Source of the DNA: a virus
Lineage: Duplodnaviria > Caudoviricetes
Virus record (IMG/VR): IMGVR_UViG_3300048597_000384
Coordinates: 1-54,046 of that record
Direction: 5' to 3' (one strand)
DNA: 54,046 bases
This document shows positions 640-48,469 of this stretch, one piece after another (within the stretch, counting starts at the first letter, position 1; every line of letters starts with the position of its first letter). The notes under the pieces were generated by a model. It ran no database searches and was not told where the DNA came from. It saw only the letters and a program-made list of their open reading frames with translations. A program made the translations under genes and the position numbers.

Positions 640-727
640 TGGCGGATGGGGTGGGATTCGAACCCACGAGGGGTTGCCCCCTGGCGGTTTTCAAGACCGC
701 TGCCATCGACCGCTCGGCCACCCATCC
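640..727 (-). tRNA. tRNA-Ser(TGA), 88 nt with encoded CCA
   Basis: Reverse complement GGATGGGTGGCCGAGCGGTCGATGGCAGCGGTCTTGAAAACCGCCAGGGGGCAACCCCTCGTGGGTTCGAATCCCACCCCATCCGCCA: acceptor stem, TGA anticodon, long variable arm, TTCGAAT T-loop. Confidence 0.97.
685..727. repeat. att site (left junction), 43-bp direct repeat equal to the 5' half of tRNA-Ser
   Basis: CGGTTTTCAAGACCGCTGCCATCGACCGCTCGGCCACCCATCC matches 48385-48427 with one mismatch (712 g vs 48412 a). Confidence 0.93.
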
Positions 728-742
728 TTCGCGCGCAAAGCC

Positions 743-771
743 TTACTAGGCGGGGCTCGCGCCCGTTTCAA
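743..771 (-). promoter_or_regulatory. Putative phage-supplied sigma70 promoter for the rebuilt tRNA-Ser
   Basis: TTGAAA (766-771) - 17 nt - TAGTAA (743-748), ending 15 nt upstream of the tRNA 5' end. Confidence 0.6.
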
Positions 772-772
772 C

Positions 773-812
773 CTGTGCCGAACCGCTGCCGTCTGTGCCG
801 TGTTCTGTGCCG
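773..812. repeat. Putative integrase arm-type sites (CTGTGCCG repeats)
   Basis: Three CTGTGCCG copies plus a CGCTGCCG variant next to the left att; the same motif recurs at 48271-48278 inside the right att. Confidence 0.5.
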
Positions 813-1054
813 GGGCGTTCCGGGTCGAGGGCCAGGCGGATCCCTAGCCTGCGCCCGTTGGGCGGGGGCTGGCCGAAGTTGTCTGGCATGCTCGGCTCGG
901 GGACCCCAGGGCGCAGCGCGGGCGACCGGCCACTCAAGGATCTGCGCGCCGAGCTGATCGATGCGGCCTGTCGGAGCAACCCCAATAAGCGGCCGACGCT
1001 TATGGTTGCGCTTTCGCACTACCGTGAGTGGCTCGCCCGCGCTAGCGTCGCGGC

Positions 1055-1735
1055 ATGTGGGAGCGCATCAAAAAGATTGCGGCCGAGTGGGGCTCAAACC
1101 TCACGTTCGGCGATTACCTTATCCGCCTCGGGAGCGCTGGATTGTCTCTTGGCGGGGGCGGCATAATGAGTTGGGCCGCCTCAGTCACAGGCTGGCTCCA
1201 AGAATGGGGGCCGATTGCAACGGTAGCGGCCGGTGTGCTTGGCTCTTGTTTGGTTGCTCTGTCTCTGGCCATCATCTACGCTCTAGTCAGTTTTGGCCGG
1301 ATGAAGCGCGCTCAAGCGTCATACCACGATTTATTGGCATCGACTGCCCATACGGTAAATCCACTTGCTCGGGGGTTCTCCACTATGAAGATCAGCTTGG
1401 CTGATCTTCAAATACATCACTCTGCAGTGGACTTCCCGCAGCAAGATAAGATCTTTTCTGACTGTGTAATTGTGGGGCCTGGAACAATGGCTTTTTCTAA
1501 TTGCACACTTACCAATATAAAGTTTCCTATGTCAAATATTGCCAAATTCAACGGCTTTGGCCTATTCTTCCCGAACGTTTTCTTTCATAGATGTACCTTT
1601 GTGAATTGCACATTTCTCCACCTGACTCTGTTTATTCGTACGCAAGACGCGGAAAATTTCAGCATGGAATTTCCTGGGCTAAAGTTCACCGAGGAAGCGC
1701 AGCCTATCGAATTACCGGCGGAGGTGAGTAGGTAA
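1055..1735 (+). CDS. Low-GC moron membrane protein (N-terminal TM segments, C-terminal F-x-x-C-repeat beta-rich domain)
   Basis: 226-aa ORF, clearly lower GC, convergent with int; FSDCVIVGPG...FSNCTL...FHRCTFVNCTF. Confidence 0.75.
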   Translation: MWERIKKIAAEWGSNLTFGDYLIRLGSAGLSLGGGGIMSWAASVTGWLQEWGPIATVAAGVLGSCLVALSLAIIYALVSFGRMKRAQASYHDLLASTAHTVNPLARGFSTMKISLADLQIHHSAVDFPQQDKIFSDCVIVGPGTMAFSNCTLTNIKFPMSNIAKFNGFGLFFPNVFFHRCTFVNCTFLHLTLFIRTQDAENFSMEFPGLKFTEEAQPIELPAEVSR

Positions 1736-1868
1736 GTCGCGGAAGATATCTGAGGCAGCTTCATTCACGCGCAGCCCACAGGTCCTGTGCCCTGCGCGAA
1801 AGTCAGATCAATCACGCGCCGCTGCCTGTAGGTTCACGCCATATGCTGTTTATTGTCAGCGCCGCTGC

Positions 1869-2873
1869 TCACGCCCCGGCCGCCAGGCGCTTGGCCGTGA
1901 CGGCTTCCTCGGGCGTGAGGAAGTCGAGGTAGAGCTCGGTGGTGGCGATGGTGCTGTGGCCCAGGATCTGCTGCAAGGCGTAGATCGAGCCGCCATCGCG
2001 CAAGTAGCGGACCGCGAACAGGTGGCGCAGGTCGTGGGTGCGGAAGGGCACGCCGGCGGCCTTCCTGAGCTGGTGCAGGTAGCTGGCGAGGTTGTGGTAG
2101 CGGTCCGCACCGCCGTCGCGGGTCGGGTGCCAGAAGACCCAGGCGCAGCCCAGCCTGCGGGGTGTGCCGTGAAGTGTGCCGGCGGCCGCCGGCGAGAGCG
2201 GCACGGAACGGGCCCGGCCGGTCTTGCTGCGCTCGACCTGCAGGGCAGCACGGTGCAGGTCGACCTGGCGCCAGCTGAGGCTTGCCGCCTCCTCGAGGCG
2301 CAGGCCGGTCTGCTCGAGCAGGCGCACCAGCGGGCGCAGGCGGGCGGGCAGGGAGCGGTGCAGCTGCTCGACCTGGTTGTCGGTGGGCAGCACGATCGGG
2401 TCGCGGCGCTCGCGGATCAGGCCGCGATCAAAGGCGCGCGCCGGGTTGGCCTGGAGCCACTCCCAGCCGACGGCCGCCTGCAGCACGGCCGAGACGGCGG
2501 TGAGGTCGCGGCGGCGGGTGGCGTTGGTGATACCGGGCCGGCCGGCGATGCGCGCCAGCACCTTGCGGTCGATCTCGTCCAGGTGCAGCGGGGCCAGGAC
2601 GTCGCCGGCGACCTTCAGGCTCGACAGGTAGCGGCGCAGCGTGGCCGGGCGCAGGGCAGCCAAGGCGACCTCGGCATGCCAGCGGACCACGGCTTCCTTC
2701 CAGGTCCGGCGCTCGTCGCCCCAGTCCGCCCTCTGCAGCCGCTCGAGCTCTGCCTTGGCCCGCTCGGCCGCTAGCTTGCGAACAGGCGTGCGTAGGCTGC
2801 GTCGATGCTCGCGACCGGCAATGGTGACGCGCAGCCACCAGACCTTGCCGCGCCGGTAGAGATGTTGCGGCAC
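1869..2873 (-). CDS. int: Tyrosine recombinase / phage integrase
   Basis: TGLRLEE, HDLRH, LGHS and TELY catalytic motifs; N-terminal arm-binding beta-sheet (LYRRGKVWWLRV). Confidence 0.95.
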   Translation of the reverse strand: MPQHLYRRGKVWWLRVTIAGREHRRSLRTPVRKLAAERAKAELERLQRADWGDERRTWKEAVVRWHAEVALAALRPATLRRYLSSLKVAGDVLAPLHLDEIDRKVLARIAGRPGITNATRRRDLTAVSAVLQAAVGWEWLQANPARAFDRGLIRERRDPIVLPTDNQVEQLHRSLPARLRPLVRLLEQTGLRLEEAASLSWRQVDLHRAALQVERSKTGRARSVPLSPAAAGTLHGTPRRLGCAWVFWHPTRDGGADRYHNLASYLHQLRKAAGVPFRTHDLRHLFAVRYLRDGGSIYALQQILGHSTIATTELYLDFLTPEEAVTAKRLAAGA

Positions 2874-3049
2874 CGGGCAGCCCTCCCCTCGGCATCCTCG
2901 ATCCAGCGTAGCACCGCGTCGCGGCGGAATGTCCAGAGCCGGCCCAGCCGGGCAGCGCTCGGGATCTCTCCGCGGGCCGCCATCTGCTGCACGGCGCGCT
3001 CGCCCAGGCCGGTGAGCTCGACCACCTCGGCGACGCGGATACGGGTCAC
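2771..3049 (-). CDS. xis: Excisionase / HTH recombination directionality factor
   Basis: GTG start; VAEVVELTGLGERAVQQMAARGEIPSAARLGRLWTFRR winged-HTH; overlaps the int start. Confidence 0.8.
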   Translation of the reverse strand: MTRIRVAEVVELTGLGERAVQQMAARGEIPSAARLGRLWTFRRDAVLRWIEDAEGRAARCRNISTGAARSGGCASPLPVASIDAAYARLFAS

Positions 3050-3216: not shown

Positions 3217-3229
3217 GGCCGTGCTCAGC

Positions 3230-4327: not shown

Positions 4328-4350
4328 TCGGACGCCCTCGCGGGCGAAGC

Positions 4351-4692
4351 TCATCGGTTCGCAAGCTCCAGCAGCACGTCGGCGTGGCACGGCTGGTGCA
4401 GCGAGCACCAGCAGGCGAGATCCTTGCCGCGCAGGTCCTTCAGGCAGGTGCGGGCCCAGTCGCCCCAGGCCCAGTGCAGGGTGTCGGGGTGGGCGTTCTT
4501 CGCGAACTGCACCGTGTCGGGGCCGCACGAGATCCGGACGGGGCCTGGTCCGATCAGCTGGCGGTACGCCTCGACCGCGAGGTCGGGCTTGCCGACGAAG
4601 GGGTTGCCCCACCTGGTGGGCCGGCCGACATAGACCGCACCCTCGGGCATCCGCCAGCCCTTGGCCCGACTGCGCTGGATCCGCTCAGCCAT
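4351..4692 (-). CDS. DUF4326-family protein
   Basis: VYVGRPTRWGNPF ... LRGKDLACWC...PCHADVL signature. Confidence 0.85.
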   Translation of the reverse strand: MAERIQRSRAKGWRMPEGAVYVGRPTRWGNPFVGKPDLAVEAYRQLIGPGPVRISCGPDTVQFAKNAHPDTLHWAWGDWARTCLKDLRGKDLACWCSLHQPCHADVLLELANR

Positions 4693-5216: not shown

Positions 5217-5485
5217 GCGTCGATCCCGTGGGCGCGGCGCAGCGCCTGGACGCGGCCGCAGGGCCGGTCGAACCAGGCGGGTGCTTCCATGGGCTCGGGC
5301 GGGCGGCCAGGCCTGCGGTGCCCGATGCCGGCCTCGGCCAGGAGCTCCTGGCAGCGGCCGCGGCCGATCCCGACGGCGGCGGCGATGCGGCCGGCCGACC
5401 ACTTCGGGTTCTCCCGCTTGAGGGCGATGGCCTGGGCGTCGCGGGGATCGTCGGCGGCGTAGCGGCAGGAGGGGCTGGCACTCAC
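5213..5485 (-). CDS. Small HTH-like protein
   Basis: NPKWSAGRIAAAVGIGRGRCQELLAEAG; GTG start overlapping the upstream stop. Confidence 0.55.
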   Translation of the reverse strand: MSASPSCRYAADDPRDAQAIALKRENPKWSAGRIAAAVGIGRGRCQELLAEAGIGHRRPGRPPEPMEAPAWFDRPCGRVQALRRAHGIDA

Positions 5486-5907
5486 AGTGCTATCCCCTCG
5501 GGCGGGAAGCCGGGGAGGGGCTCGGGGCGGACGGTGCCGAGGAAGCGGGAGAGGGCGCGCTGCTGTTCGGGCTCGAGCTCGACCAGGTGGCTGAGAAGGC
5601 GCTCGGGGATGGCGCGGGCGTGGTGGCGGGATGTGGTGGGTGCCGCGGCGTCGAGGCACTGCTCGACCAGCTCGACCGGGTCGAGCTGCAGCTCGGCGAT
5701 CGCCAGGATCAGGGTGCCGGCCGACAGGCGGTTGCGGCCGAGCTCGACCTTGGCCCACTGCTGCGGCAGCATGCCCAGGCTGCGGGCGACCTGGCCCTGG
5801 CTGAGGCCCGCCAGCAGCCGCCGCCGGCGCAGGGCGGCACCCAGCCGGGCATTGACGTCGCGCACGAGCTGGCGGAGTGCGGTCCGGTCGTGGGCGGGCT
5901 CACGCAT
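5482..5907 (-). CDS. XRE-family HTH transcriptional regulator
   Basis: LRRRRLLAGLSQGQVARSLGMLPQQWAKVELGRNRLS. Confidence 0.85.
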   Translation of the reverse strand: MREPAHDRTALRQLVRDVNARLGAALRRRRLLAGLSQGQVARSLGMLPQQWAKVELGRNRLSAGTLILAIAELQLDPVELVEQCLDAAAPTTSRHHARAIPERLLSHLVELEPEQQRALSRFLGTVRPEPLPGFPPEGIAL

Positions 5908-6169
5908 GGTGGGGTCCTGTGTCGGCCTCGGGCAGGGCGGTCAGGCGGTCGGCCGGGACCAGGAGGCACCGGCCGGACATCACCACCGCCGCACCGGGCG
6001 CGTCGCGGCCGGGTGCCTCGGCCACCGGGGCGAGGCGCACGACGCGGACCAGGTGCACGTCCCCGCCGGACCAGAGCCAGGCGGTGCAGCCGGCCTCGAG
6101 GCAGAAGTCCGGGCCGCCGAACATCTGGGCGGCGAGCGTAGGGGTGGCAGGTTTGGCCGGGGCGCTCAC
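5900..6169 (-). CDS. Hypothetical phage protein
   Basis: GTGA coupling with the upstream ORF. Confidence 0.45.
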   Translation of the reverse strand: MSAPAKPATPTLAAQMFGGPDFCLEAGCTAWLWSGGDVHLVRVVRLAPVAEAPGRDAPGAAVVMSGRCLLVPADRLTALPEADTGPHHA

Positions 6170-6528
6170 GAGAAGAACTGCCACCAGGCGGCCGCGCCCA
6201 GGAGGCAGGCCAGGACCAGCCACAGCCCGCTGCCGGCGGCACGCTCGCCGGCGCCGAGCGGGCGGTCGCCGTCTTCCTCCTCGCCCTGGTCGTGCGGGCC
6301 GGCGTAGAGCCCGTGCACCGCGAGGTTCATGACCGCGTCGTCGACGGCGGCCTGGGCGGTGGCGTGGCTGCCGCTGTCGAGCAGCGGGCCGCTGCGGCCG
6401 TGGATGGCGGCGACGTAGCCGGCGCCGGGCCGGTACTCCAGCGACCAGGCCGTGTCGCCCGGCAGCTCGGCGAGCTCGACCCGGTTGCCCGGGCCGGGCC
6501 TCGCCTTGTGGATGTGCGTAACGCTCAT
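6166..6528 (-). CDS. Hypothetical protein with C-terminal TM helix
   Basis: MSVTHIHKA...GLWLVLACLLGAAAWWQFFS. Confidence 0.6.
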   Translation of the reverse strand: MSVTHIHKARPGPGNRVELAELPGDTAWSLEYRPGAGYVAAIHGRSGPLLDSGSHATAQAAVDDAVMNLAVHGLYAGPHDQGEEEDGDRPLGAGERAAGSGLWLVLACLLGAAAWWQFFS

Positions 6529-6851
6529 TTCGCGCCCCGCTGGCTGGCAGGGTGAGGTTGGCAATAGATCACCGCGCCGCCCTTGGTGATCACCAGCTCT
6601 TCCCAGTCGGTTTCGAAGCTGTAGGTTTCCGTGAGGTCGCGGAAGCGCACCCGGATCGAGTCCGGCTCGTCCACGAACACCTTTCGACCGTTGAAGCCGC
6701 GCAGAGGCCTCTGCAGGCTGGCGGCATCGACCCGCCCCGGTCCGGGCAATACGGCGACGGCCGTCATCGCGAGCCCTTGCAGGACCAGCCGGCGGCGCGG
6801 CCCCACGGCCTTCGCCGCGGCACTCACCTTGTCGATGTGGGTAACGTCCAT
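6525..6851 (-). CDS. First gene of the leftward early operon; possible twin-arginine signal
   Basis: RRRLVLQGLAMTAVAVLP; directly downstream of the PL-like promoter. Confidence 0.6.
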   Translation of the reverse strand: MDVTHIDKVSAAAKAVGPRRRLVLQGLAMTAVAVLPGPGRVDAASLQRPLRGFNGRKVFVDEPDSIRVRFRDLTETYSFETDWEELVITKGGAVIYCQPHPASQRGAK

Positions 6852-6881
6852 TTCGCCCCCGTCGGTTGGTGACGGGAACGC

Positions 6882-6931
6882 AGGCTACCTCATTTCAGTG
6901 AGGCGTCAAGCAGCAACCGCATTTTTATGAG
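6882..6931 (-). promoter_or_regulatory. PL-like promoter with two operators
   Basis: TTGACG (6904-6909) - 16 nt - TAGCCT (6882-6887); CTCA-TTTCAG-TGAG (6889-6902) in the spacer and CGCA-TTTTTA-TGAG (6918-6931). Confidence 0.75.
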
Positions 6932-7410
6932 GCACTCGGTGCGGCGGTGTTCTCGCTTGCTTGGGCGATAGCCTCATCGACGGTTAAACCGTTCCGGTAG
7001 TGTAGACCACCATCGACCCAGGGAATGAAGCGCAGGAGATCCTTAAAGCCGTAGCGTCGGCCGCGAAGATAAGCTCGAACCGCAGAATTGAGGGTTCTGT
7101 GTTCAGAGAACACATATGGGTTGCCGGCCTCACGAGAAAAGCGAACGATAGCCCATCCCAGTCGATATGCTGAGCGACTGGATAAATCGTGACCTGTGTA
7201 AGTGTTGATGGCAGCGCAAGAGACCCAAATGCCATGCTTCGGGTCTCTTGCAGCAAGATAGGTTATCTGAACCTTAGGCCACTCTTGCCCGAAGGATGCC
7301 AAAATCTGTGTCCGAGCTAAGCTCTCATTCTCGGCGCAGATTTCCCCAGTACTGCTTGGGCGATCGCGGATCTTTCCTTCGCCACTGTCAACGACGAACA
7401 GGAAGTCCAT
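6925..7410 (-). CDS. Low-GC accessory protein co-oriented downstream of the repressor
   Basis: 161-aa ORF with atypical composition, in the position of lambda rexAB. Confidence 0.7.
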   Translation of the reverse strand: MDFLFVVDSGEGKIRDRPSSTGEICAENESLARTQILASFGQEWPKVQITYLAARDPKHGIWVSCAAINTYTGHDLSSRSAYRLGWAIVRFSREAGNPYVFSEHRTLNSAVRAYLRGRRYGFKDLLRFIPWVDGGLHYRNGLTVDEAIAQASENTAAPSAS

Positions 7411-7427
7411 GCGATCGCCTCGGCATT

Positions 7428-7817
7428 CTATCGAGTAATCGCTCTATGTCTCGGCGCAGTCAGTGCTTGCAGTAGCTCATTGTTCTGCTGCAGTAGCGCG
7501 CGTTGGTCATTCATCAACGCGCGGATGTCCTGTAGAACGGAAAGAACTATCTGCAGGTCATTGCTCGCGCGGGGCGTCGCATTGTCGCCGGTACCGGGGG
7601 ACCTTTCGTCTCCATCCTGGAGAAGCTCGGGGATGGAAATGCCTTCCGCGTCCGCCAGCTTTTCTAGGGTGCGGGCCGTGATCGAGCGGTTGGGTTCGTT
7701 GAGGAAGGTCGCAAGGGTGTTCTCGGACAAGCCAGCACGGGCCGCCCATGGATACGGCTTCAGGTCCTTGCGCTTCATGTAGGCCCTGAGCCGGGTGCGA
7801 ATGAACTCCGGTGTCAT
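7428..7817 (-). CDS. CI-like repressor (XRE HTH plus C-terminal coiled coil)
   Basis: MTPEFIRTRLRAYMKRKDLKPYPWAARAGLSENTLATFLN; divergent from cro. Confidence 0.8.
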   Translation of the reverse strand: MTPEFIRTRLRAYMKRKDLKPYPWAARAGLSENTLATFLNEPNRSITARTLEKLADAEGISIPELLQDGDERSPGTGDNATPRASNDLQIVLSVLQDIRALMNDQRALLQQNNELLQALTAPRHRAITR

Positions 7818-7819
7818 GC

Positions 7820-7901
7820 CGCATTTTTGTGAGCTGGCATCGATGCCAGCAACCTCATCGTTGTGAGCCCCATTGCAAACCTCAAAAGAATGAGGTAAGC
7901 G
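7820..7901. promoter_or_regulatory. OR-like switch: three operators, an 18-bp palindrome and a PR-like promoter
   Basis: CGCA-N6-TGAG (7820-7833), CTCA-N6-TGAG (7854-7867, 7881-7894), GCTGGCATCGATGCCAGC (7833-7850), TTGCAA (7873-7878) - 17 nt - TAAGCG (7896-7901). Confidence 0.75.
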
Positions 7902-7907
7902 GGCTCG

Positions 7908-8141
7908 ATGAGCGTGAACGCCACCCTCCAGCACATCCGTGGGCGCCTGCTGAGCAGCGGCCTGCCGCTCCGGCGCGTCGCACAGGAAGCCGAACTGGCC
8001 GAGAACACCGTGGCGAAGGTTGCCAGGGCCAGCCCCAGGGTCACCGTCGACACGCTGCGCCGTATCGAGCGCGTTCTGGATCGTCTCGCATCCGAGCCCG
8101 CTGAGAGCGCCCCCAGCGCGAGCAGCGACAGTGTCCAATAG
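7908..8141 (+). CDS. Cro-like HTH protein
   Basis: 77 aa, LPLRRVAQEAELAENTVAKV...TVDTLRRIE; divergent from cI. Confidence 0.8.
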   Translation: MSVNATLQHIRGRLLSSGLPLRRVAQEAELAENTVAKVARASPRVTVDTLRRIERVLDRLASEPAESAPSASSDSVQ

Positions 8142-8555
8142 CTTCCCCCGCGCGTTGCGCCGTGCTGGCCGATCGTGTGCTGTGGGGAGAGGCGTCGTTG
8201 CCACGACACGTAGCTTGGGCTCGGCCGTTCGGCCAGCCTTGCCGTCGCCCAATCCCGGCGAAGTGACGGGAAAGGCCGCTCGCTGATGCAGCATGGTCTC
8301 ACCAGCGGCCGCCGCAGCGTTGTCGATCGCCAACCGTGGAAATCTACGGTTCTTCGTGCGCACGATTGCCTCCGCCTTATGGTTGTTCTGTCGCACGCCT
8401 TGGGCTGTGAAATCGTTTTTCTCGTTCTACTCCGCGGCTACAGCCTGCCGCGCACCTCGTGCGCCCGGCAAGTCGGTTCATGTGGCGGCGACGTGCTACC
8501 AAAAGGTTATCCATTCACTCCGGAGGGGTGCGTGACACCGCCACTCTAGGAGCGG

Positions 8556-11264: not shown

Positions 11265-11437
11265 GTGCGGCCGTGCTGGTGATCCTGGCCTGCCTGGGCG
11301 GCGGCACTTGCCAGCGGTTCGAGGTGCCGGTCGAGGCCTGCACCGCCGGCGGCCAGCCGGCCGTCCTGGCCTGGCGGATGCTCCATCCCGATTGGACCGT
11401 GCGCCGCTGGCGCTGCGAACAGGGAACCCCCGCATGA
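11261..11437 (+). CDS. Small Cys-rich exported-type protein
   Basis: VSAAVLVILACLGGGTCQRFEVPVEAC...WTVRRWRCE. Confidence 0.55.
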   Translation: MSAAVLVILACLGGGTCQRFEVPVEACTAGGQPAVLAWRMLHPDWTVRRWRCEQGTPA

Positions 11438-12261
11438 TCGAGAACCGCGAGGCGTGGATGGATCTGCTGTTCTCGGACGAGGTCGAGGGCGGCTGGTCCG
11501 ACCGCCCGAAGAACGAAGACCCCGGCGGCAAGACGATGCGGGGCATCACGCTCGGCTGCTACTCGGATTTCCTGGGGCGGGCGGCGACGCCGGAAGAGCT
11601 GCGCCAGATCACCGAGGAGAAGGCCCGGGAGATCGCGATCACGATGTTCTGGAACCCGGTCAGCGGCGACTTCCTGCCCGGCGGCGTGGACGTGCTCGCG
11701 GCCGACTTCGCCTTCCACAGCCATTGGACCAGGGCGGCGAAGGAGCTGCAGGAGCTGGTCGGCGTCAAGGTCGACGGCTTCGTCGGCCCGAACACGATCT
11801 CGGCCGTGCGGCGGCACAACCAGCGCGACCTGGTGCTGCGCTACTACGACGCCCGCATGGACTTCATGGAGGGCCTGCCGAACTGGGAGGCCAACGCGCG
11901 GGGCTGGCGCAAGCGGGCCAAGCTGATGCGCGACCTGGCCCTCAAGAAGGTCCAGGCGCGCCCGACGCTGGTGGCGGCGCTGAAGAACCCCGAGGCGGTC
12001 GGCACGGCCACGGCCGCGGCCGCGGGTGCCACCGGCATCGCCTGGTACCTGGACCAGGCCGGCCCCCTGATCGAGGCCATCAAGGGCCTGCTCGGGCCGG
12101 AGCAGCTGCAGAAGCTGCAGTCGATCGACGACACGGTGGCGGCCGCCGGCGCCGGCGACCCGCTGCCGGCCTTGCTCCTGGTCGCCTACATGACCGCCAC
12201 CAGCGGGTTCGCGGTCTACCGGATCATCCAGACCTTCCGGAAGGGCCGGGTGATCGCATGA
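11434..12261 (+). CDS. Endolysin, glycoside hydrolase family 108, with PG-binding and C-terminal hydrophobic segments
   Basis: EGGWSDRPKNEDPGGKTMRGIT motif; LQELVGVKVDGFVGPNTI; NARGWRKR. Confidence 0.85.
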   Translation: MIENREAWMDLLFSDEVEGGWSDRPKNEDPGGKTMRGITLGCYSDFLGRAATPEELRQITEEKAREIAITMFWNPVSGDFLPGGVDVLAADFAFHSHWTRAAKELQELVGVKVDGFVGPNTISAVRRHNQRDLVLRYYDARMDFMEGLPNWEANARGWRKRAKLMRDLALKKVQARPTLVAALKNPEAVGTATAAAAGATGIAWYLDQAGPLIEAIKGLLGPEQLQKLQSIDDTVAAAGAGDPLPALLLVAYMTATSGFAVYRIIQTFRKGRVIA

Positions 12262-12689: not shown

Positions 12690-12904
12690 TGCCGCCGACC
12701 AGCCCGCTGCGGCGCGCCTGCGCCCAGCTCGCCTATCTCGCCGAGACGCTGAGCCCGACCTGGCCCGAGACGCCGGCGCAGCGGCGGGCCTGGCTAGAGG
12801 AGATGAAAAAGCGCCTGGCCGAGGTCGAGGCGGCGTGCCCGGAGGCGTTCGCCGAGACGGTGGACCCGACCGGTACGGACCCGGCACCGGTGGAGGAAGG
12901 CTGA
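12689..12904 (+). CDS. Hypothetical phage protein
   Basis: TGATG coupling at both ends. Confidence 0.5.
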   Translation: MPPTSPLRRACAQLAYLAETLSPTWPETPAQRRAWLEEMKKRLAEVEAACPEAFAETVDPTGTDPAPVEEG

Positions 12905-14067
12905 TGGCGGCGCGCAAGCTGAAGCCCGCCGCGGGCGGGGTGCCCACGGCCACCGTGGTCAAGGAAGACCTGGCCGCGGCCCTGGCCCTGCCGCGCTCGG
13001 TGGTGGCCAAGCGCAGCACGATCCCGATCCTGGCCTGCCTGCTGCTGCGGCAGAGCCGTGGCGAGCTGCATGTGGTCGGGACCGACATGGACATCGGGGT
13101 GGCCACACGCTGCCCCCTGCGGGACCATGACTGGCCGGACGGCGGGGCCGGGGTGGCGGTCGACGCCGACCTCCTGGCCGCCGTGGTGGCGGCCGCACCC
13201 AAGGGCGGCGAGATCAGGCTGGCGTCGGGGCCGAGCGGGCTCCTGGTCAGCCACGCGCTCGAGCGGGCGCGCCTGCCGGTGCTCCAGGGCGACGAATTCC
13301 CCTCGCTGAAGGAGCCGGACGGTACGGCGGTCGAGATCGCGGCCGAGGGCGGCAAGGTGGCCGCGGCCCTGGCGCGCGTGTCGGCCGCGATCAGCCGCGA
13401 GGAGACGCGCTACTACCTGAACGGCGTGTTCGTCGAGGTCCAGCGGCACCATGTCGAGCTGACCGCCACCGACGGCCACCGGCTGCACCACACGTGGTTG
13501 GAACCGGACGGGATCGAGGGCGAGGCGCCGGGCGTCATCCTGCCGCGGCGCCTGGTCGAGCTCCTGGCCGGGATCGAGGGCGAGGTCACGCTGCGGATCG
13601 GGGCGACGGGCGTCTCGGTGGCCGGCGGCTTCGGGCGGATCACCAGCCGGGTGATCGACGGGAGCTTCCCCGAGTGGCGCCGGATCGTCCCGCCGCCCTC
13701 GTCGGACGGGCTCGAGCTGTCGGGCGGCGACGTCGAGGCCGCCGTCAAGCGGCTGCGCGGCTTCGGCGACGGGGCGCTCGGCCTGTGGCTGGAAAAGGAG
13801 CGGCTGAGCCTCCAGGCCGCGACCGAGGAAGCGGCGGCGATCGCGGAGACCAGCATCGCCGGGGTGGCGCGCGGGGCGGCGGAGCCGCTGCAGACCGGCG
13901 TCAAGGGCCGCTACCTCGCCGATGCCGCCGCCGTCGCCGGTGGCGGGCGCATGGTGGTGAGCTGGTCGACCTCCAGTGCGGCCATGCGGGTCGCCTTCGC
14001 GGACCGGCCCGACGACGTCGTGGTGCTGATGCCCATGCGCATGGGTGCGTGGCGCGAGGTGGAATGA
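12904..14067 (+). CDS. dnaN: Phage-encoded DNA polymerase III beta sliding clamp homolog
   Basis: KRSTIPILACLLL, TDMD, EETRYYLNGV, ATDGHRL, IDGSFPEWRRIVP, VLMPMR. Confidence 0.9.
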   Translation: MAARKLKPAAGGVPTATVVKEDLAAALALPRSVVAKRSTIPILACLLLRQSRGELHVVGTDMDIGVATRCPLRDHDWPDGGAGVAVDADLLAAVVAAAPKGGEIRLASGPSGLLVSHALERARLPVLQGDEFPSLKEPDGTAVEIAAEGGKVAAALARVSAAISREETRYYLNGVFVEVQRHHVELTATDGHRLHHTWLEPDGIEGEAPGVILPRRLVELLAGIEGEVTLRIGATGVSVAGGFGRITSRVIDGSFPEWRRIVPPPSSDGLELSGGDVEAAVKRLRGFGDGALGLWLEKERLSLQAATEEAAAIAETSIAGVARGAAEPLQTGVKGRYLADAAAVAGGGRMVVSWSTSSAAMRVAFADRPDDVVVLMPMRMGAWREVE

Positions 14068-14571: not shown

Positions 14572-15243
14572 GTGAGCGAGCTGCTCGCGAGCGTGGAGCC
14601 AGGGCCGCTGCCGTTCCCGGCCGGCGAGCCGTCGCGCGAAGCGTTGTGCCCGGCTGGGACGCCGCCGGGGGGCCTTGCCTATCTGGGGGCCAGGGCGACG
14701 GTGCGCTGCTGGATGGTGTCCTGCCCGGAATGTCTCGCCGGCTGGCTCGCCGTCCTGCCGTCGGGCAGCCCGTTCGGCTATCGGCCGGCGGTCAGCCTTG
14801 GCTGCAGCCGCGGCTGCCCGCCGGACCTGGTCGAGTGGGCGTGGCACTGGAGGCTCGGCAATCTGGCCGAGCTGCGCCGCCTGGGCGGGCCGCCGGAACA
14901 GGTGGTCGGGGCCGAGCCGCAGGCCGGCTTCGCTGCCGCTCCCGTCCACTCGGGCGTGCGCTTCACGGGCGCCCCGGTCGACGCCGCGCGGCTTGCGGAG
15001 GCCATGCGCCGGTCGCACGCGGCGCAGCGGGTCTGGACGGGGGCCTGGTACGCCCGGCGGCCCGACCAGGCCCGCCTGCAGCTGTGCCGCGGGCTGGTGC
15101 GCGCCGGGGTGCGCGAGCCCGACGCGCTGCGCGCGGCACTGGTCGCCTACGAGCGGCGGCAGGGCCGCGATCCGGCGCTGAGCCTGCCGGAAACCATCGC
15201 CGCGGCCGCGATCGGTGCCGCCATTTCTGGGAGACGGGCATGA
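14572..15243 (+). CDS. Putative replication accessory protein (Zn-binding, primase-associated-like)
   Basis: CPEC...LGCSRGCP; coupled to the helicase gene. Confidence 0.55.
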   Translation: MSELLASVEPGPLPFPAGEPSREALCPAGTPPGGLAYLGARATVRCWMVSCPECLAGWLAVLPSGSPFGYRPAVSLGCSRGCPPDLVEWAWHWRLGNLAELRRLGGPPEQVVGAEPQAGFAAAPVHSGVRFTGAPVDAARLAEAMRRSHAAQRVWTGAWYARRPDQARLQLCRGLVRAGVREPDALRAALVAYERRQGRDPALSLPETIAAAAIGAAISGRRA

Positions 15244-16493
15244 TCGGCGACGACTTCGTCGACCAGCTCGACCGCGCCGCGCGCTCGCCCGACTGGCGCT
15301 CGACGCTGATCTGTGGCGACAACGGGCCGAAAGCCAACCTCTACAACGTCCTGATGGCGCTGCGCCACTGCCCGGACCTCAAGGGCACCATCCGGCTCAA
15401 CGCCTTCCGGCTCGAGATCGACGTGGTGGCCCCGTTGCCCTGGGACGATCGCATCGGCCGGGAATGGTCGCGGCACGACGATCTGCACCTCACCGAGTGG
15501 CTGCAGCATCACGGCATCGGGGTGAAGGTCGGCGACACCGCCGACGGGGTCGAGGCGGTGGCGGCCGAGAGCAAGTACCATCCGGTGCGCGACTGGTTGG
15601 AAGGGCTCGCCTGGGACGGCCAGCCGCGGGTGCGGACCTGGCTGACCTACTATCTGGGCGTCGAGGACGGCGACTACAGCCAGGCCGTCGGCGCCAGGTG
15701 GCTGATCTCGGCCGTGGCCCGGGTGATGCGGCCCGGCTGCAAGGCCGACCATTGCCTGGTGCTCGAGGGCGACCAGGGGCGCGGCAAGAGCTCGGCCCTG
15801 CGCATCCTGGTCGGCGACGACTGGTTCACCGACGAGCTCGCCGACCTCGGCAGCAAGGATGCGGCGATGCAGACCCGCGGCGTGTGGGTGGTGGAGCTCG
15901 CCGAGCTCGAGCATCTCAGCCGCGGCGAGGTCGGGCGGATCAAGGCCTTCCTGACCCGCACCGTCGACCGCTACCGGCCGCCCTACGGCCGGCGGCTGGT
16001 GATGGCGCCGCGCGAGTGCGTGTTCGCCGGCACGGTCAACGACCGCCAGTACCTGAAGGACGAAACCGGCAACCGCCGGTTCTGGCCGGTCCGGGTAGGC
16101 CAGAGCATCGACCTCGCCGCCCTGCGCCACGACCGCGAGCAGATCTGGGCGGAAGCGGTCCAGCTGTGGCGCGACGGGGTGCGCTGGTGGCTGGAAGGGC
16201 GCTCGCTGGTCGAGCTCGCGCGCGAAGAGCAGGAGGGCCGCGCTAGCGTCGACCCGTGGGGGGACAAGGTGGCGGACCACGTCGCGGACAAGGGCGAGGT
16301 CACCGTGGCCTCGATCCTCACCGAGGGTGTCGGCAAGCGCCTGGGCGAGTGCACCCGCGCGGACGAGATGCGGATCGCCAAGATCATGCAGCAGCTCGGC
16401 TGGCGGCGAGGGCGGCAGAGCCAGCCGCCGCGGCGATGGTGCTACCTGCGCACCGCCGATGCCGGGCCGGCGGAGACGCACGATGCGCCATAG
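15240..16493 (+). CDS. VapE-family (virulence-associated E) P-loop helicase
   Basis: LEGDQGRGKSS Walker A, WVVELAEL, RPPYGR, GTVN...LKDETGNRRFWP. Confidence 0.9.
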   Translation: MIGDDFVDQLDRAARSPDWRSTLICGDNGPKANLYNVLMALRHCPDLKGTIRLNAFRLEIDVVAPLPWDDRIGREWSRHDDLHLTEWLQHHGIGVKVGDTADGVEAVAAESKYHPVRDWLEGLAWDGQPRVRTWLTYYLGVEDGDYSQAVGARWLISAVARVMRPGCKADHCLVLEGDQGRGKSSALRILVGDDWFTDELADLGSKDAAMQTRGVWVVELAELEHLSRGEVGRIKAFLTRTVDRYRPPYGRRLVMAPRECVFAGTVNDRQYLKDETGNRRFWPVRVGQSIDLAALRHDREQIWAEAVQLWRDGVRWWLEGRSLVELAREEQEGRASVDPWGDKVADHVADKGEVTVASILTEGVGKRLGECTRADEMRIAKIMQQLGWRRGRQSQPPRRWCYLRTADAGPAETHDAP

Positions 16494-31866: not shown

Positions 31867-34800
31867 GCCAGGCGTGCTCATCGACATGGTGCCGCTGCCG
31901 CAGGGCGGCGGCGACACGCTGCGCCTGGTGCTTACCATCGCGGTGGTGGCCCTGGCCGTGGCGGCCACGGGCGGGATAGCGGGCCTGGGCGTGTTCGCGG
32001 CCGGCGGAGCGCTTGCCGGCTGGGGTGCGGTGGCGGGAGCGGTCGGCGGGGCGCTGATCAGCACGGTGGGCATGCTGGCGATCAATGCCCTGGTGCCGCC
32101 GGCCCAGGCGCAGATCAACCAGGGCCTGGGCGCCACCTCGGTCACCTATTCGATCGAGGGGGCCAGCAACCGGGCGCGGCCGGACCAGCCGATCCCGCGC
32201 GTGCTCGGCAGGCACCGCTACGTGGCCGACCTGGCGGCACCCTGGGTCACCGAGCTCGACGATCAGGACGAGTACCTGCACGGCATCCTGTGCTGGGGCT
32301 ATGGGCCGGCGAGCGTCTCGGAGATCAAGATCGGCGACACGCCGATCGAGAACTTCCAGGGTGTGCAGCTCGAGCACTATCTGGGCGACAGCGACACCCC
32401 GCCGGCCTTCACGCTCTACCCCAACCAGGTGGCGCTGACCCAGGTGGCCTCGGCGCTGCGCCAGGGTACCAGGGTCCGGCGCACCACCGACACGGCCACG
32501 GCCTACGCGCTCCTGGTCTTCCAGTTCCGGACCGGGGCCATCTCGGTCTCCAGCTCGACCGGCGACCAGCTCGGCGTCGAGGTGAACCTGCGCTACCGCT
32601 GGCGGGCGGTGGGCGGGACCTGGAGTGCGGAAGAGGACTGGCCGATGGGCGGCAAGTCCAGCTCGCCCATCAAGCGGTCGCGCCGGATCGCCTTCCCGGC
32701 CGAGGGCGAATACGAGATCGAGGTCTGGCGGACCACGGCCGACTCGACCAGCGACAACCTCATCAACGCGGTGCACTGGGAGGTCCTGAAATCCGGGAAC
32801 TACCAGGCGCCGCTGCGGGGCATCCTGGGCGTGGTGTTCACCGCGATCCGGATCAAAGCCACCGACCAGCTCAACGGCGTGATCCAGGATCTCTCGGGCC
32901 TGGTCTCCAGCTACGCCATCGCCTGGAACGGCTCGACGTGGATCTATGGCCCGACCGCCCAGCCGGCGGCCCTGTTCCGCAGCGTGCTGCAGGGCCGGGC
33001 CGCCAAGAGCCCGCTGGCCGACGCCAAGATCGACCTTGCCCAGCTGCAGCACTGGGCGGAGCACACCGTGCCGCGCGGCTACGAGTGCGAGCTCGTGGTC
33101 GACCGCGAGCTGAGCCTGGGCGAAACGCTGGATCTGATCGCCGCCACCGGCCGGGCCGCCAAGCTGCAGGTGGACGGCCGCTGGTCGGTGGCGATCGACG
33201 AGCCCAAGAGCGTGCCCGCCCAGCTGTTCACCGCGCGCAACATGCGCGGGTTCCGCGGCCGCCGGCTGTTCGTCGAGGAGCCGCACGCGCTGCGGGTCAG
33301 GTTCGTCGACCGGACCGCCGGCTACACCCAGCAGACGCGACTGGTCTATGCCGACGGCTACAGCGAGGCCAATGCCAGCCTGATCGAGGATGCCGAGTTC
33401 CCCGGCGTCACCAACCCGGCCCTGATCCACGTGTTCGGCCGGATGCGCCTGGCCGAGGGGCGGCTGCGCGCGGAGACCTACACCGCCGAGGTGGATTTCG
33501 AGCACCTGGTGTGCACCCGCGGCGACCTGGTGCTGGTGCAGCACTCGGCCCCGCTATGGGGCCTGGGCTCGGGCCGGGTGAAGAGCCTGGTGCTGGACGG
33601 GACGAACATCGTGGCCGTCGTGCTCGACGAGCGGCTGGTGTTCGACGGGACCGCTGCCGACTACGTGATCCGGATCCGCCGTGCCGACACCAGCCTGTTC
33701 TTCAGCGACATCCACGATCCGGTCGGCGAGGCCGACGCGGTCTACCTGAATCCGGCGGTGCCGGCGGCGAGTGCGGGCATCGCCGCCGGCGACCTGGCGT
33801 CGATCGGGATCCGCGACCGCGACGCGGTGCCCTTGCTGATCCGCTCGATCGAGCCCTCGGGCGACCTTGCCGCCCAGGTGAGCTTCATCCCGTACGCGCC
33901 GGAGATCTTCGCGGCCGCGAGCGGCCCGATCCCGCCCTGGAACCCGAACATCAGCCCGCCCACCGGGTCGCGCGCGCCGATCATCGAGGCGGTGGTCTCG
34001 GGCGAGGCCACGGGTGTGCGCAACGCCGACGGCTCGCTCACCTCGCGGGTCCTGGTGCGGCTGGCCAATGACGGCTCGCGGCCGCTGGCGACCATCGCGG
34101 GCCTGGAGCTCGCCTGGAAGGCCTTCGACGACAGCGGCCCGTTCCTGATCCAGCAGGCCCCGGCCGACGCCAGCCAGGTGGCGATCACCGAGGCCGCCCC
34201 CGGGGCCATCATCCGCATCGCCGCCCGGTTCCGCCTGTTCAGCGGGCATGGGGCCTGGTCGGGCGAGGTGCAGCACCTGGTGGTGGGGCCGACCCTGCCG
34301 CCGCTCGACGTCAAGGGCCTGATCATCGATGGCGTGTTCCTGCGCTGGATCCACACCAGCGGGAAGGACCATCGCGGCTTCCTCCTGAAATGGGCGCCCA
34401 GCGTGGGCCAGCCCTGGGAGGAATGTGCCGACGTCACCGACGAGGTCGTGACACAGCTCGAGTTCCCGACCGCGGGCCTGCCGGACCAGACCAAGCAGGT
34501 GCTGATCAAGGCCGTGACCGTCCACGGCGTCGAGAGCGTCACGCCGGCACGGGCCACCGCCCCGGCGGGCTTCGCCTTCGCGCGGGTCAATCTCGGCAGC
34601 GACAGCCTGCGCGGCCGCGGCTGGCCGGGGAACATCCTCAACGCCCAGCGGATCGGCGGGGCCATCGTCGGCCTGGACAATTCGGAGTGGCTCGGTGCCG
34701 GCGGCATGTGGCTCGAGCCCGGGTCGAACCTGTGGCTGGAGCCGGACTGGGCCGAGGTCAGCTACATCTGCAACGTCTACACGCCGACCACACTGCTGCG

Positions 34801-35332
34801 CACCGACCGGATCTTTCTCGACCACGACATCCAGGGCGACTTCCGGCTCGACTATCGCTGGGGCACCGCTGACCTCGCCTTCGCGGCCTTCGTCGATCCC
34901 GTCCCCGACGCGCTGCTGACCGGCAACTTCAACGACCCGGTGGGTGCAGCCGTCGACGAGGAGGTGCTGCTGGTCTGGCGCCCGTGGCGCCAGGGCATCC
35001 CGGCGCTGCCCGACCAGCCGCTGCAGCTGCGGGTGATCATCGCCGGCGGCGGTGCCCTGCAGCCGATCCTGCGCGAGCTTAGCCTGCGGTTCGACGCCGA
35101 GGAAATCCAGGAGACCTTCAGCAGTCTCCCGATCGGCCCGGCCAGCACGTTCGTGCCCAAGCAGCGGACCTATCGGCGCATCGCCTACGTGCTGGGCAGC
35201 ATCAACGGCGGCGGGACGGCCAGCACGTTCGTGGTCGACGGCAAGGCCCCCGGTGCGATCCGGGTCAGCCTGCGCGATGCGGCCGGCACCAGCGTCGCGG
35301 GCTTCGCCGACGTGCGCATCGGAGGTGGGTGA
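31682..35332 (+). CDS. Central tail fiber / host-specificity protein (TipJ-like), start approximate
   Basis: N.ARP.QPIPRVLG, IKATDQLNG, EHLVCTRGDLV. Confidence 0.9.
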   Translation: MILSHRPHPFRLTRETIEIPAGLTLGEMIEIAQPDPVLRSCMEVRIAGRRWPNSTWRHARPKPGVLIDMVPLPQGGGDTLRLVLTIAVVALAVAATGGIAGLGVFAAGGALAGWGAVAGAVGGALISTVGMLAINALVPPAQAQINQGLGATSVTYSIEGASNRARPDQPIPRVLGRHRYVADLAAPWVTELDDQDEYLHGILCWGYGPASVSEIKIGDTPIENFQGVQLEHYLGDSDTPPAFTLYPNQVALTQVASALRQGTRVRRTTDTATAYALLVFQFRTGAISVSSSTGDQLGVEVNLRYRWRAVGGTWSAEEDWPMGGKSSSPIKRSRRIAFPAEGEYEIEVWRTTADSTSDNLINAVHWEVLKSGNYQAPLRGILGVVFTAIRIKATDQLNGVIQDLSGLVSSYAIAWNGSTWIYGPTAQPAALFRSVLQGRAAKSPLADAKIDLAQLQHWAEHTVPRGYECELVVDRELSLGETLDLIAATGRAAKLQVDGRWSVAIDEPKSVPAQLFTARNMRGFRGRRLFVEEPHALRVRFVDRTAGYTQQTRLVYADGYSEANASLIEDAEFPGVTNPALIHVFGRMRLAEGRLRAETYTAEVDFEHLVCTRGDLVLVQHSAPLWGLGSGRVKSLVLDGTNIVAVVLDERLVFDGTAADYVIRIRRADTSLFFSDIHDPVGEADAVYLNPAVPAASAGIAAGDLASIGIRDRDAVPLLIRSIEPSGDLAAQVSFIPYAPEIFAAASGPIPPWNPNISPPTGSRAPIIEAVVSGEATGVRNADGSLTSRVLVRLANDGSRPLATIAGLELAWKAFDDSGPFLIQQAPADASQVAITEAAPGAIIRIAARFRLFSGHGAWSGEVQHLVVGPTLPPLDVKGLIIDGVFLRWIHTSGKDHRGFLLKWAPSVGQPWEECADVTDEVVTQLEFPTAGLPDQTKQVLIKAVTVHGVESVTPARATAPAGFAFARVNLGSDSLRGRGWPGNILNAQRIGGAIVGLDNSEWLGAGGMWLEPGSNLWLEPDWAEVSYICNVYTPTTLLRTDRIFLDHDIQGDFRLDYRWGTADLAFAAFVDPVPDALLTGNFNDPVGAAVDEEVLLVWRPWRQGIPALPDQPLQLRVIIAGGGALQPILRELSLRFDAEEIQETFSSLPIGPASTFVPKQRTYRRIAYVLGSINGGGTASTFVVDGKAPGAIRVSLRDAAGTSVAGFADVRIGGG

Positions 35333-46289: not shown

Positions 46290-46302
46290 TGTCGCGGACG
46301 GC

Positions 46303-46452: not shown

Positions 46453-46512
46453 GGTTCCCTCGGCGCGGTTTCTTGGGGCGCCAGGGCGGAGCCTGGTCAT
46501 GAGGCGGCCGGG

Positions 46513-46938
46513 GTGGCGGAAAGTCAAGGCGTGAGGGCGTGCAAGCTCTGTGCGCGGATCGCCGACTGTTCGCCGCTGCTCGAGCTGTTTCTTTCCGGCT
46601 ACGCTTTGCTGTTCGCGGTGGTGCTGGTCCTGCATCCAAGCCTGATGGCGGAGAGCCGGGCCTGGTCCGAGATGCTGGTCTGGGCACCGCAATGGGCCTG
46701 GGCGGCGGCGTTCCTGGCGGTGGGCCTGCTCAAGGCCCTGGCGCTCCTGCTGGTCCGGCCGCGGCTGCAGCTCGCGGCCCTGGGTGCCGGCGTGGCGCTG
46801 TGGACCCTGGTGGCCTACGGCGTCGGCTTCCAGCCCGAAGCGCCCAGCTTCGCGCGCTACGTCTACGGCTACTACGCGTTCGGGTCGTGGGTGTGCGCCT
46901 GTGCCGTGGCCTGGCACATGGGTGCCCGGCATGTTTGA
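46513..46938 (+). CDS. Multi-TM membrane protein (holin candidate)
   Basis: About four hydrophobic helices at the end of the late operon. Confidence 0.6.
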   Translation: MAESQGVRACKLCARIADCSPLLELFLSGYALLFAVVLVLHPSLMAESRAWSEMLVWAPQWAWAAAFLAVGLLKALALLLVRPRLQLAALGAGVALWTLVAYGVGFQPEAPSFARYVYGYYAFGSWVCACAVAWHMGARHV

Positions 46939-47353
46939 GGCCTGGACGCTCGACAGCCTGTGGAAGGCCCTGGGCATCCTGGCGCTGTTCGCCGGGCCGA
47001 CGGTCACCTGGCTGATCGCGCGGTCGTCGCGGCAGTCGTCGATCGACGAGGCGCGCAACGTGGCCAACCGCGAGGCCTTCGAGATCGGGGCCAAGATGCG
47101 CGACGAGCTGCGCGTCGAGATGATCCGCCTGTCGACCGAGGTGAAGCGGCAGGAGAAGGAGATCGAGGGCCTGCAGGTGCAGCTCGGCGAGGCGAAGGAG
47201 ACGCTCGCCCGCGAGAGCGGCCACTGGGAGGCGTTCAAGGCGATGTGGTGCCCGAAGGCCGACTGCCCGGTGCTGCTGCGCCGCCAGCCGATCTGGGACG
47301 GCGTCGAGCGGCGCGAGCGCGATCCGGCGCCCCCGCGGCAGCCGCCACGCTGA
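46931..47353 (+). CDS. Single-TM coiled-coil protein (holin-associated candidate)
   Basis: LGILALFAGPTVTWLI then a heptad-rich helix and a CPKADCP motif. Confidence 0.6.
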   Translation: MFEAWTLDSLWKALGILALFAGPTVTWLIARSSRQSSIDEARNVANREAFEIGAKMRDELRVEMIRLSTEVKRQEKEIEGLQVQLGEAKETLARESGHWEAFKAMWCPKADCPVLLRRQPIWDGVERRERDPAPPRQPPR

Positions 47354-47483
47354 GGCCGCGCCCCGCCATGCACAGGACATGCAGGTGATCTGAGTCCGGC
47401 CCCGCGGCCGGTTCTCCGGCTGCTGCCCGCCCCGGTCGGCGATCGCTCGCCGGGCCCATCGGAGCCCAGATCCCAGACGGAAG

Positions 47484-48260
47484 ATGCCTGCAATGCTCAG
47501 GATCCTGCTGCTGCTGCTCGCGGCCATGGTCTTCGCCAATGCGGCCCAAGCCGCGAACGTGACCCTCCTCTTCGTCTACAGCCCGGGCGCTCGCGACAAG
47601 ATGAACGCCTATGCCGGCAGCGTCTCGCAGTGGACGAAGCTGGCGCTCGAGCAGCTGAACCGGGCGCACTCGATCAGCAACACCGGCCAGACCGTCTCGC
47701 TCTCGCAGAACGCCGCCGGCACTTGGTCGAGGAAGCTGCTCACCAACTACGTCAAGGCGCCGGCCGGCGCTCCGCAAGGTGACAGCCTCGGTAATGATCT
47801 CGTGCGTCTCCAGGCCGATGGCGACGGCTACATGGACAAGGTCCACGAGTGGCGCGACGAATACGCTGCCGACGTGGTGATCGGCGTCTTCGACTACAGC
47901 CCCGGCGAGTTCAACACCGGGCAGGCCTGGGTCCAGGGTACGGACTTCGCCGACGAGGCCTTCCTGGTGGTCGACGTCGACCGGGCGATCGCCATCGGCG
48001 ATCTGATCCTCGGGCACGAGATGGGGCACCTGTACGGCTGCGCGCACGAGAGCGCCGCGATCAGCTCGCGTGGCTATTGCGAGCCGGGCAACCAGTGGCA
48101 CGATCTTATGGCGATCAGCTGCCCGAACGTGTTCTCGACCCGGCTGAACTTCTGGTCGGCCAACATCTCGATCGTCGGCCGGGGGATGATCGGCGACTTC
48201 ACACACAACTGTGCGGCCGCGATCCCCTACTTCTCCAACCGCATGAGCACGTTCCGCTAG
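47484..48260 (+). CDS. Secreted metzincin zinc metalloprotease (reprolysin-like) moron
   Basis: Signal peptide (AQA); HEMGHLYGCAH equals HExxHxxGxxH; Met-turn DLMA. Confidence 0.85.
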   Translation: MPAMLRILLLLLAAMVFANAAQAANVTLLFVYSPGARDKMNAYAGSVSQWTKLALEQLNRAHSISNTGQTVSLSQNAAGTWSRKLLTNYVKAPAGAPQGDSLGNDLVRLQADGDGYMDKVHEWRDEYAADVVIGVFDYSPGEFNTGQAWVQGTDFADEAFLVVDVDRAIAIGDLILGHEMGHLYGCAHESAAISSRGYCEPGNQWHDLMAISCPNVFSTRLNFWSANISIVGRGMIGDFTHNCAAAIPYFSNRMSTFR

Positions 48261-48384
48261 CCCTGCCGGGCTGTGCCGCCGGCCGCTCCGCTGCCGGCGT
48301 CGCTCCGTTCGCCTGATGCGTTAGACGCGCTGCCGGAAAGTCAGGGATCGCCTGGGTTTCGGGCTTCCGGCCGCGATCTCTGCC

Positions 48385-48427
48385 CGGTTTTCAAGACCGC
48401 TGCCATCGACCACTCGGCCACCCATCC
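48385..48427 (-). repeat. att site (right junction): orphaned 5' half of tRNA-Ser
   Basis: GGATGGGTGGCCGAGTGGTCGATGGCAGCGGTCTTGAAAACCG; identity stops within the 3' strand of the anticodon stem. Confidence 0.93.
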
Positions 48428-48441
48428 GTCCCGGCCGACCT

Positions 48442-48469
48442 GAGATAGCATGGCTGCATCTCTCCGCAA
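48442..48469 (-). promoter_or_regulatory. Putative original host tRNA promoter
   Basis: TTGCGG - 16 nt - TATCTC with TGn extended -10, 14 nt upstream of the tRNA fragment. Confidence 0.55.

Follow-up and report, generated by a model that had tools for sequence, protein, structure and literature searches.

Which part of a host tRNA gene does an integrating phage replace, and from whose DNA is that gene transcribed afterwards? The question is raised by a stretch of 54,046 nt (IMG/VR virus record IMGVR_UViG_3300048597_000384; Duplodnaviria, Caudoviricetes), hereafter the window, in which a prophage of ~47.7 kb, prophage A (728-48384), lies between an intact tRNA-Ser(UGA) gene and a displaced copy of that gene's 5' half. 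A sequence-only reading of the locus had proposed that the prophage supplies the 5' half of the tRNA together with a promoter of its own. Comparison with a related phage and with prophage-free relatives of the host supports the structural side of this proposal. A tyrosine integrase very probably joined a 43-bp core in the phage attachment site (attP), equivalent to tRNA nt 1-43, to the host gene and so rebuilt the tRNA from a phage-borne 5' half, most likely under a phage promoter. We take the phage to be the donor of this half because its relative carries the two prophage ends joined in an attP and relatives of the host retain the empty bacterial site (attB).

The only tRNA gene that ARAGORN finds in the window is tRNA-Ser(tga) at 640-727 on the minus strand, so that tRNA nucleotide numbers rise as window positions fall. 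Rfam agrees, with a single match at the gathering threshold (RF00005, 643-727, minus strand, 57.4 bits). A repeat finder pairs 685-733 with 48385-48433 (family D8; 49 nt, 94% identity), and base-by-base reading shows that 685-727 equals 48385-48427 over 43 bp with one difference, G at 712 against A at 48412. Since the tRNA lies on the minus strand, this block is its 5' end, nt 1-43, comprising the 5' strand of the acceptor stem, the D-arm and the anticodon arm including the 3' strand of its stem. Identity between the core copies stops after ...AAAACCG, at that 3' strand. The mismatch falls at D-loop position 16, where the intact gene has C and the fragment U. The copy at 685-727 (minus strand) belongs to attL, in which the intact tRNA would combine a host-derived 3' part with a 5' part that is phage-derived up to the crossover; the copy at 48385-48427 (minus strand), a displaced 5' fragment with U16, belongs to attR. 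The fragment lies on the same strand as the full tRNA gene (tDNA) and on its upstream side. The sequence-only reading had held that the duplicate is the 5' rather than the 3' end of the tRNA, that the copies differ at one D-loop base, that phage DNA with the element TTGAAA-17-TAGTAA precedes the complete gene and that a second promoter-like element at 48442-48469 now precedes the truncated half. As a description of the sequence it proved accurate in every detail.

The joined form of the two prophage ends is directly seen in a related phage. A scan of viral contigs for the integrase of prophage A returned seven loci, and at one of them, L001, the integrase is 89% identical. In BLAST comparisons, L001 6233-6373 corresponds to window 824-685 and L001 6329-6488 to window 48427-48270. 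These matches to opposite ends of the prophage overlap at one core, so both ends are joined in L001 through a single attP core, which consists of a tRNA 5' half and is present once in the 64,344-nt record. The L001 core is of the tRNA-Ser(UGA) type, with the same acceptor and anticodon-arm strands as in the window, and its D-arm differs from that of the window yet pairs internally. Because the altered D-arm is self-consistent, the core looks adapted to another host rather than decayed. Upstream of it stands TTGAAA-17-TATGTG, 14 nt from the tRNA +1, and further upstream a block of GGCACAG repeats is likewise kept. In the window this block holds three copies within 39 nt of the P arm (773-811, minus strand), candidate arm-type sites for the integrase, among 15 copies of the heptamer on both strands of the 54 kb, others including those at 1785 and 48271. 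We also considered whether the attP is the relic of a whole phage tRNA gene and rejected this, the similarity between the P' arm of the window and the tRNA 3' half being not significant (score 3.0 against a shuffle mean of 3.8, reached by 1593 of 2000 shuffles).

The complementary partner, an empty attB, was found by exact matching of 72 nt of the tRNA against one genome per species. All five loci recovered (L008-L012) lie in Geminicoccaceae or unclassified alphaproteobacterial metagenome-assembled genomes. In each, the intact tRNA 5' end directly abuts sequence like window 48428-48471, and in four the empty site runs on into a homologue of 48682-50590 (95.7%, 84.8%, 75.9% and 75.6% nucleotide identity). 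The same arrangement, including the tRNA followed by a homologue of the terminase gene terL, recurs in a sixth relative, G016. The comparison with prophage-free relatives that the earlier reading had called for thus reveals an empty site with its native upstream region in six genomes. None of the six has 728-780 as the native region upstream of the tRNA, the finding that reading had named as fatal to its proposal, and nothing like 728-830 occupies the upstream position in the relatives with an empty site. The intact tRNA of the window is identical to that of the relative at L012 over 88 of 88 nt. Position 16 is C in the intact genes of four of the five relatives and U in the fifth, as it is in G016.

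The empty sites also identify the promoter that the gene has lost. The element TTGCGG-16-TATCTC (48442-48469, minus strand), which in the window stands 14 nt before the +1 of the fragment, precedes the intact tRNA with the same spacing in all five attB loci, as read by eye, and in G016. The relatives share the motif TTGC(G/C)(G/C)-16-TA(T/A)(C/G)(T/A)(C/A), with CCATGC just before the -10 hexamer and 14 nt to the +1. Its presence at the empty sites therefore marks 48442-48469 as the native tRNA promoter region, now separated from the complete gene. That gene appears normally to be single-copy in the family: a 26-mer spanning the anticodon arm to the D-arm is found, at up to three mismatches, in 59 of 107 family genomes and occurs once in 56 of these 59, a tally that counts the unpublished genome G094 as one single-copy row and agrees with the earlier description of tRNA-Ser(UGA) as typically single-copy.

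From these observations we propose that the attP would run from int through three GGCACAG repeats, the promoter and tRNA nt 1-43 to the crossover, followed by the P' arm, with its tRNA-like segment on the integrase side of the crossover and in the same direction as int. The crossover would most likely fall in the anticodon loop or stem, since identity between the copies stops at the 3' strand of that stem. Recombination with attB would join the native promoter and the host 5' half to the P' arm and leave them stranded at the far end of the prophage as attR (48385-48471). At attL, phage promoter and phage 5' half would be joined to the host 3' half, restoring a full-length wild-type tRNA at 640-727. 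The lysogen's tRNA, presumably single-copy and essential, would then depend on transcription out of phage DNA, with TTGAAA-17-TAGTAA the most likely promoter, although read-through from int could also serve. What we infer is the place of the crossover, the activity of the promoter and whatever effect integration may have on fitness or stability, along with the chimeric antisense RNA that the displaced host promoter might produce, a transcript that had been suggested to run toward a protease gene just inside attR. Stabilisation of the prophage end, in any case, is not special to the 5' mode, because 3'-restoring prophages also carry a needed part of the gene.

Some observations count against this account, and those that concern the promoter lend weight to the alternative that integration took place as described but the tRNA is transcribed by read-through from int or from another phage promoter, its supply then depending on transcription of the int region. 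The phage-side element (743-771, minus strand; TTGAAA at 766-771, TAGTAA at 743-748) has a weak -10 hexamer that agrees with TATAAT at three of six positions. A strict sigma-70 scanner calls neither this nor the host-side element because neither -10 hexamer ends in the T that it requires. The conservation of the phage-side promoter rests on two phage sequences, and int and the tRNA lie on one strand with no predicted terminator between them on that strand. We nevertheless regard the alternative as fairly unlikely. TTGAAA, the 17-nt spacer and the distance to the +1 (15 nt in the window, 14 nt in L001) are kept between the two phages while surrounding bases differ, and 14 nt is also the distance from -10 to +1 at the native promoter of the relatives. 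Moreover, the pattern TTGAAA-N17-TA, chosen after the element had been seen, occurs once on the two strands of the 54 kb and at least once in 2 of 100 shuffled versions. It is because the motif is unique, its position kept in two phages and its distance to the +1 that of the native promoter that we read TTGAAA-17-TAGTAA as a putative working promoter. Of the 20 read runs listed, none is on record as RNA.

Other adverse points concern the integration event itself. The host of L001 was not found, its 45-nt core matching none of 107 family genomes at up to two mismatches. An integrase like that of prophage A is absent from all five attB relatives at E <= 1e-10, which fits empty sites and provides no second lysogen. 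Single-copy status is taken from relatives, the record itself being a lone 54-kb contig. The mismatch at position 16 is no guide to the crossover point: the closest relative, G001, has C16 like attL, so that U16 in the fragment may be the host original or later decay. Both attP and attB were observed in relatives, not in this strain, and contigs from the four best read runs (one study) gave no usable attB or attP junction on 1-3000. These contigs cover 1-653 and the tRNA and break at the tRNA, with mixed loose ends past 727 (agreement 0.55-0.64), and their missing cover over 800-1900 is not evidence. One could suppose from such a locus that the 43-bp fragment at 48385-48427 is an older scar of another element or rearrangement and that prophage A ends elsewhere. 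Other mobile-element remains are indeed present here, and tRNA 5'-half fragments with no integrase nearby lie in G003, at a distance of 17 kb from the intact gene and in the opposite orientation to it, and on contig C648 of G016. This supposition is largely refuted by the available comparisons and strikes us as extremely improbable: the flanks of both window copies are contiguous in L001 across one core, and in the empty sites of the relatives the tRNA adjoins precisely the sequence that borders the fragment on its outer side. It is also very unlikely, if somewhat less so, that the cluster of T7-like phage structural genes beyond attR is a second prophage inserted into the same tRNA in the same 5' manner, which would make the "native" promoter at 48442-48469 phage-derived as well. 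The terL gene of that cluster does end ~270 bp from the tRNA fragment. However, G001, G002, G004 and G005 carry no second copy of the core, the promoter motif is common to all six species, and the cluster occupies the same place in all of them with TerL at 72-96% amino-acid identity, as fits vertical inheritance.

Integration of prophage A by restoration of the 5' part is therefore best placed within a real, already catalogued minority mode. The configuration filter of Islander accepts a 5' fragment upstream of the tDNA, and of the 3919 islands counted in Table 1 of that paper, 3760 have a 3' fragment and 159 a 5' tDNA fragment (Hudson, Lau, Williams 2015, PMC4383910). By that count the mode was already known and makes up ~4% of the set; it is less common than the 3' mode, as the earlier remark on its rarity had it, and it is catalogued. 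A footnote to the same table names three tDNA integration subsites (PMC4383910). As in this 5'-fragment class of Islander/TIGER, prophage A has its tyrosine integrase inside and is bordered on one side by a complete tDNA and on the other, upstream, by a 5' fragment in the same orientation, and the 47.7 kb between its core copies falls inside the Islander length range of 2-200 kb. It differs from that class in offering, for one phage lineage, the attP form together with the empty attB and a candidate promoter carried by the element. We found no paper on promoters brought by 5'-type elements; phrases with prime signs are unsearchable, so we make no claim to novelty. Work by Williams in 2002 reportedly described an anticodon-loop sublocation for tRNA-targeting integrases, with strand exchange inside the 7-nt loop. 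Our identity block resembles that class in reaching from the anticodon stem to one end of the tRNA gene, although the end reached is the 5' and not the 3' one, which means that a promoter must come with the element. According to the sequence-only reading, 5'-restoring integration is also reported for a cryptic Mesorhizobium loti element.

The integrase family provides a further view of this polarity. The tyrosine integrase of prophage A (1869-2873, minus strand; Pfam PF00589, 2.5e-24; phrog_1, 4.2e-52) is co-directional with the intact tRNA and 1.1 kb away from it. Together with the seven viral-contig loci, 80 from a metagenome scan gave 87 integrase loci, of which 86 could be classified, L093 having no scorable match. 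An intact tRNA follows int on the opposite strand, the usual layout, at 47 of the 86, whereas it lies on the same strand at four (L018, L019 and L020 with Thr-UGU, and L046 with Ser-GCU); the remaining 35, many at contig ends, have no tRNA within reach. A quick IQ-TREE phylogeny of 74 rows (66 distinct), with SH-aLRT support only and several long branches, splits with support 100 into clades of 11 and 63 rows. The smaller holds the window, L001 and all four same-strand rows, whereas the 42 opposite-strand rows all fall in the larger. The phylogeny that had been suggested as a check thus sets the window integrase apart from 42 relatives with the usual layout. L019, where a DUF4326 gene lies upstream of int as in prophage A and host-like genes follow the tRNA, fits the same layout as prophage A.

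Two elements show how the arrangement might vary. The viral locus L004 (the same as L017), whose integrase is 40% identical, carries a single tRNA-Ser(GCU) 5' half, nt 1-43, preceded by TTGACG-17-TAAGGC (5708-5800, minus strand). This half stands 670 nt beyond int on the other strand and occurs once in the 52.8-kb linear contig, possibly as a further 5'-type attP in which int lies across the crossover. Searching the records of L002, L004, L005 and L006 with a tRNA-Thr query gave no match. The 16-kb element of viral record G006 (L014 427-516 and L003 5110-5170) resembles prophage A in its integrase, which is 39% identical, of the same clade and co-directional with the tRNA, in its target, the same tRNA-Ser(UGA), and in the same anticodon-arm edge. 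In contrast to prophage A, its int is remote from the intact tRNA, being placed at the tRNA-downstream end, a 61-bp 3' part is duplicated and the intact tRNA keeps its own promoter, the ordinary 3'-restoring outcome. The side of the crossover that carries the tRNA homology consequently varies within one clade. Similarity between the P side of L003 and the tRNA 5' half is not significant (score reached by 378 of 3000 shuffles). A more general idea, which we consider unlikely, is that a distinct integrase clade has reversed polarity on the symmetric anticodon stem-loop, its phages carrying cassettes of promoter plus tRNA 5' half for several tRNAs. Ser-UGA is the case described here, while L004, L046 and L018-L020 hint at Ser-GCU and Thr-UGU.

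The core repeats, together with the joined form in L001, define the ends of prophage A; its genes were assigned from Pfam matches on 55 open reading frames and PHROGs matches on 29. By this annotation it is a lambda-like temperate phage with a lambda-type head, packaging and tail module. Beyond the integrase come genes for a DUF4326 protein (4351-4692), two helix-turn-helix regulators (5482-5907 and 7428-8396), a GH108 lysin (11308-12261), a DnaN-like sliding clamp (12835-14067, plus strand) and a VapE-like primase (14646-16493). The structural module comprises a gpA terminase, TerL (17935-20142; GpA_ATPase/GpA_nuclease), a lambda-family portal (20373-21917; Phage_portal_2), an S49 protease (21914-23191; Peptidase_S49), gpD (23232-24143; HDPD), a gpE capsid protein (24182-25198; Phage_cap_E), a tail tube protein (25969-26919; Phage_tube_2), a tape measure protein (28532-30424; TMP_2) and a gpJ-like protein (31325-35332; GpJ FNIII). 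Adjoining attR is an M12/reprolysin-like metallopeptidase (47484-48260, plus strand; PF13688, 6.1e-10), the "protease moron" of the sequence-only reading. Prophage A thus resembles lambda-like siphoviruses in its gpA-type terminase, portal, S49 protease, gpD, gpE and gpJ-like tip and in their lambda order, but departs from them by integrating into a tRNA 5' half. Among 50,697 deposited phage records none is close to it at the DNA level; the best match, at 67% identity, spans 29% of a 7.3-kb query. The G+C content of the window falls to 0.64 at 6001-8000, around the repressor-like gene, and to 0.61 at 1-2000, which includes the 1.1-kb P arm, against ~0.72 elsewhere.

The flanks of prophage A are not plain host DNA. 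Directly downstream of the tRNA 3' end, translation of 450-567 (minus strand) reveals a remnant of ~39 codons from the N-terminus of a P4-type integrase. This remnant, outside prophage A, has no Pfam match by itself and shares ~93% nucleotide identity with the 5' end of an intact integrase gene in G001, whose product carries Arm-DNA-bind_3 and Phage_int_M and which adjoins a tRNA-Ser(CGA). The left flank looks like a decayed ordinary island at the tRNA 3' end. Positions 1-225 match another G001 contig, C38, at 91%, which makes this flank a mosaic. On contig C519 of G016 (L108), one strand carries both tRNA-Ser(UGA) and, ~2 kb further downstream, a tRNA-Ser(CGA), a pairing that may explain why tRNA-Ser(UGA) of the window is followed by the flank that in G001 follows tRNA-Ser(CGA).

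On the right, PHROGs matches define a conserved chromosomal neighbour outside prophage A, a T7/podovirus-like cluster (48699-54046, minus strand) with genes for a podovirus-like TerL (48699-50258), a tail tubular B-like protein (50689-52611) and a tail tubular A-like protein (52608-53180), all on the minus strand. G001 has such a cluster at the same place beside the tRNA, at 96% nucleotide identity, with capsid and portal-like genes further on; a podovirus/T7-like counterpart occupies L102 10089-19901. Five relatives (G001, G002, G004, G005 and G016) have a homologue of this terL beside the tRNA, and in G003 one adjoins a displaced 5' fragment; a single-protein scan of viral contigs found no close relative of the right-flank TerL. 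No att repeat flanks the cluster where it adjoins tRNA-Ser(UGA). Since the core is not repeated in G001, G002, G004 and G005, we read the cluster as probably phage-derived and vertically inherited rather than as a tandem prophage; it may be a domesticated or cryptic module.

Stray tRNA fragments occur in two of the relatives. In G003 (L104, G003:C18:131000-133000; L106), terL and a native-like promoter accompany a decayed tRNA-Ser 5' fragment, and the 17-kb interval between this inverted fragment and the tRNA holds an insertion sequence transposase, a Kup transporter and a GH26 gene, with no integrase. The arrangement resembles an old event of the 5' type that was later rearranged. G016 carries, besides its unoccupied tRNA-Ser site, an isolated tRNA-Ser(UGA) 5' fragment at ~3015-3060 of L107 (G016:C648:6000-12000), whose identity to the gene ends in the anticodon loop. 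Three GTGACAG repeats lie ~80-110 nt upstream of its 5' end, and no integrase was found within 3 kb.

To conclude, this locus offers a fully bounded example of 5'-restoring integration, with attL, attR, the attP of a related phage and the attB of relatives, and its main value lies in this complete set of att sites and in the hint of a dedicated integrase clade. It could also serve studies of how the attP sites of phages follow the tRNA sequences of their hosts. Programs that call prophage boundaries and expect only 3' fragments would misplace ends of this kind. If the phage promoter alone drives the tRNA, the lysogen would need prophage DNA to express an essential gene, an addiction-like tie. 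Should the idea of a cassette-carrying clade hold, each such phage would take control of the transcription of an essential tRNA present in one copy; losing the prophage end imprecisely would then be lethal, and a phage such as prophage A could tune the decoding of UCA codons in the lysogen.

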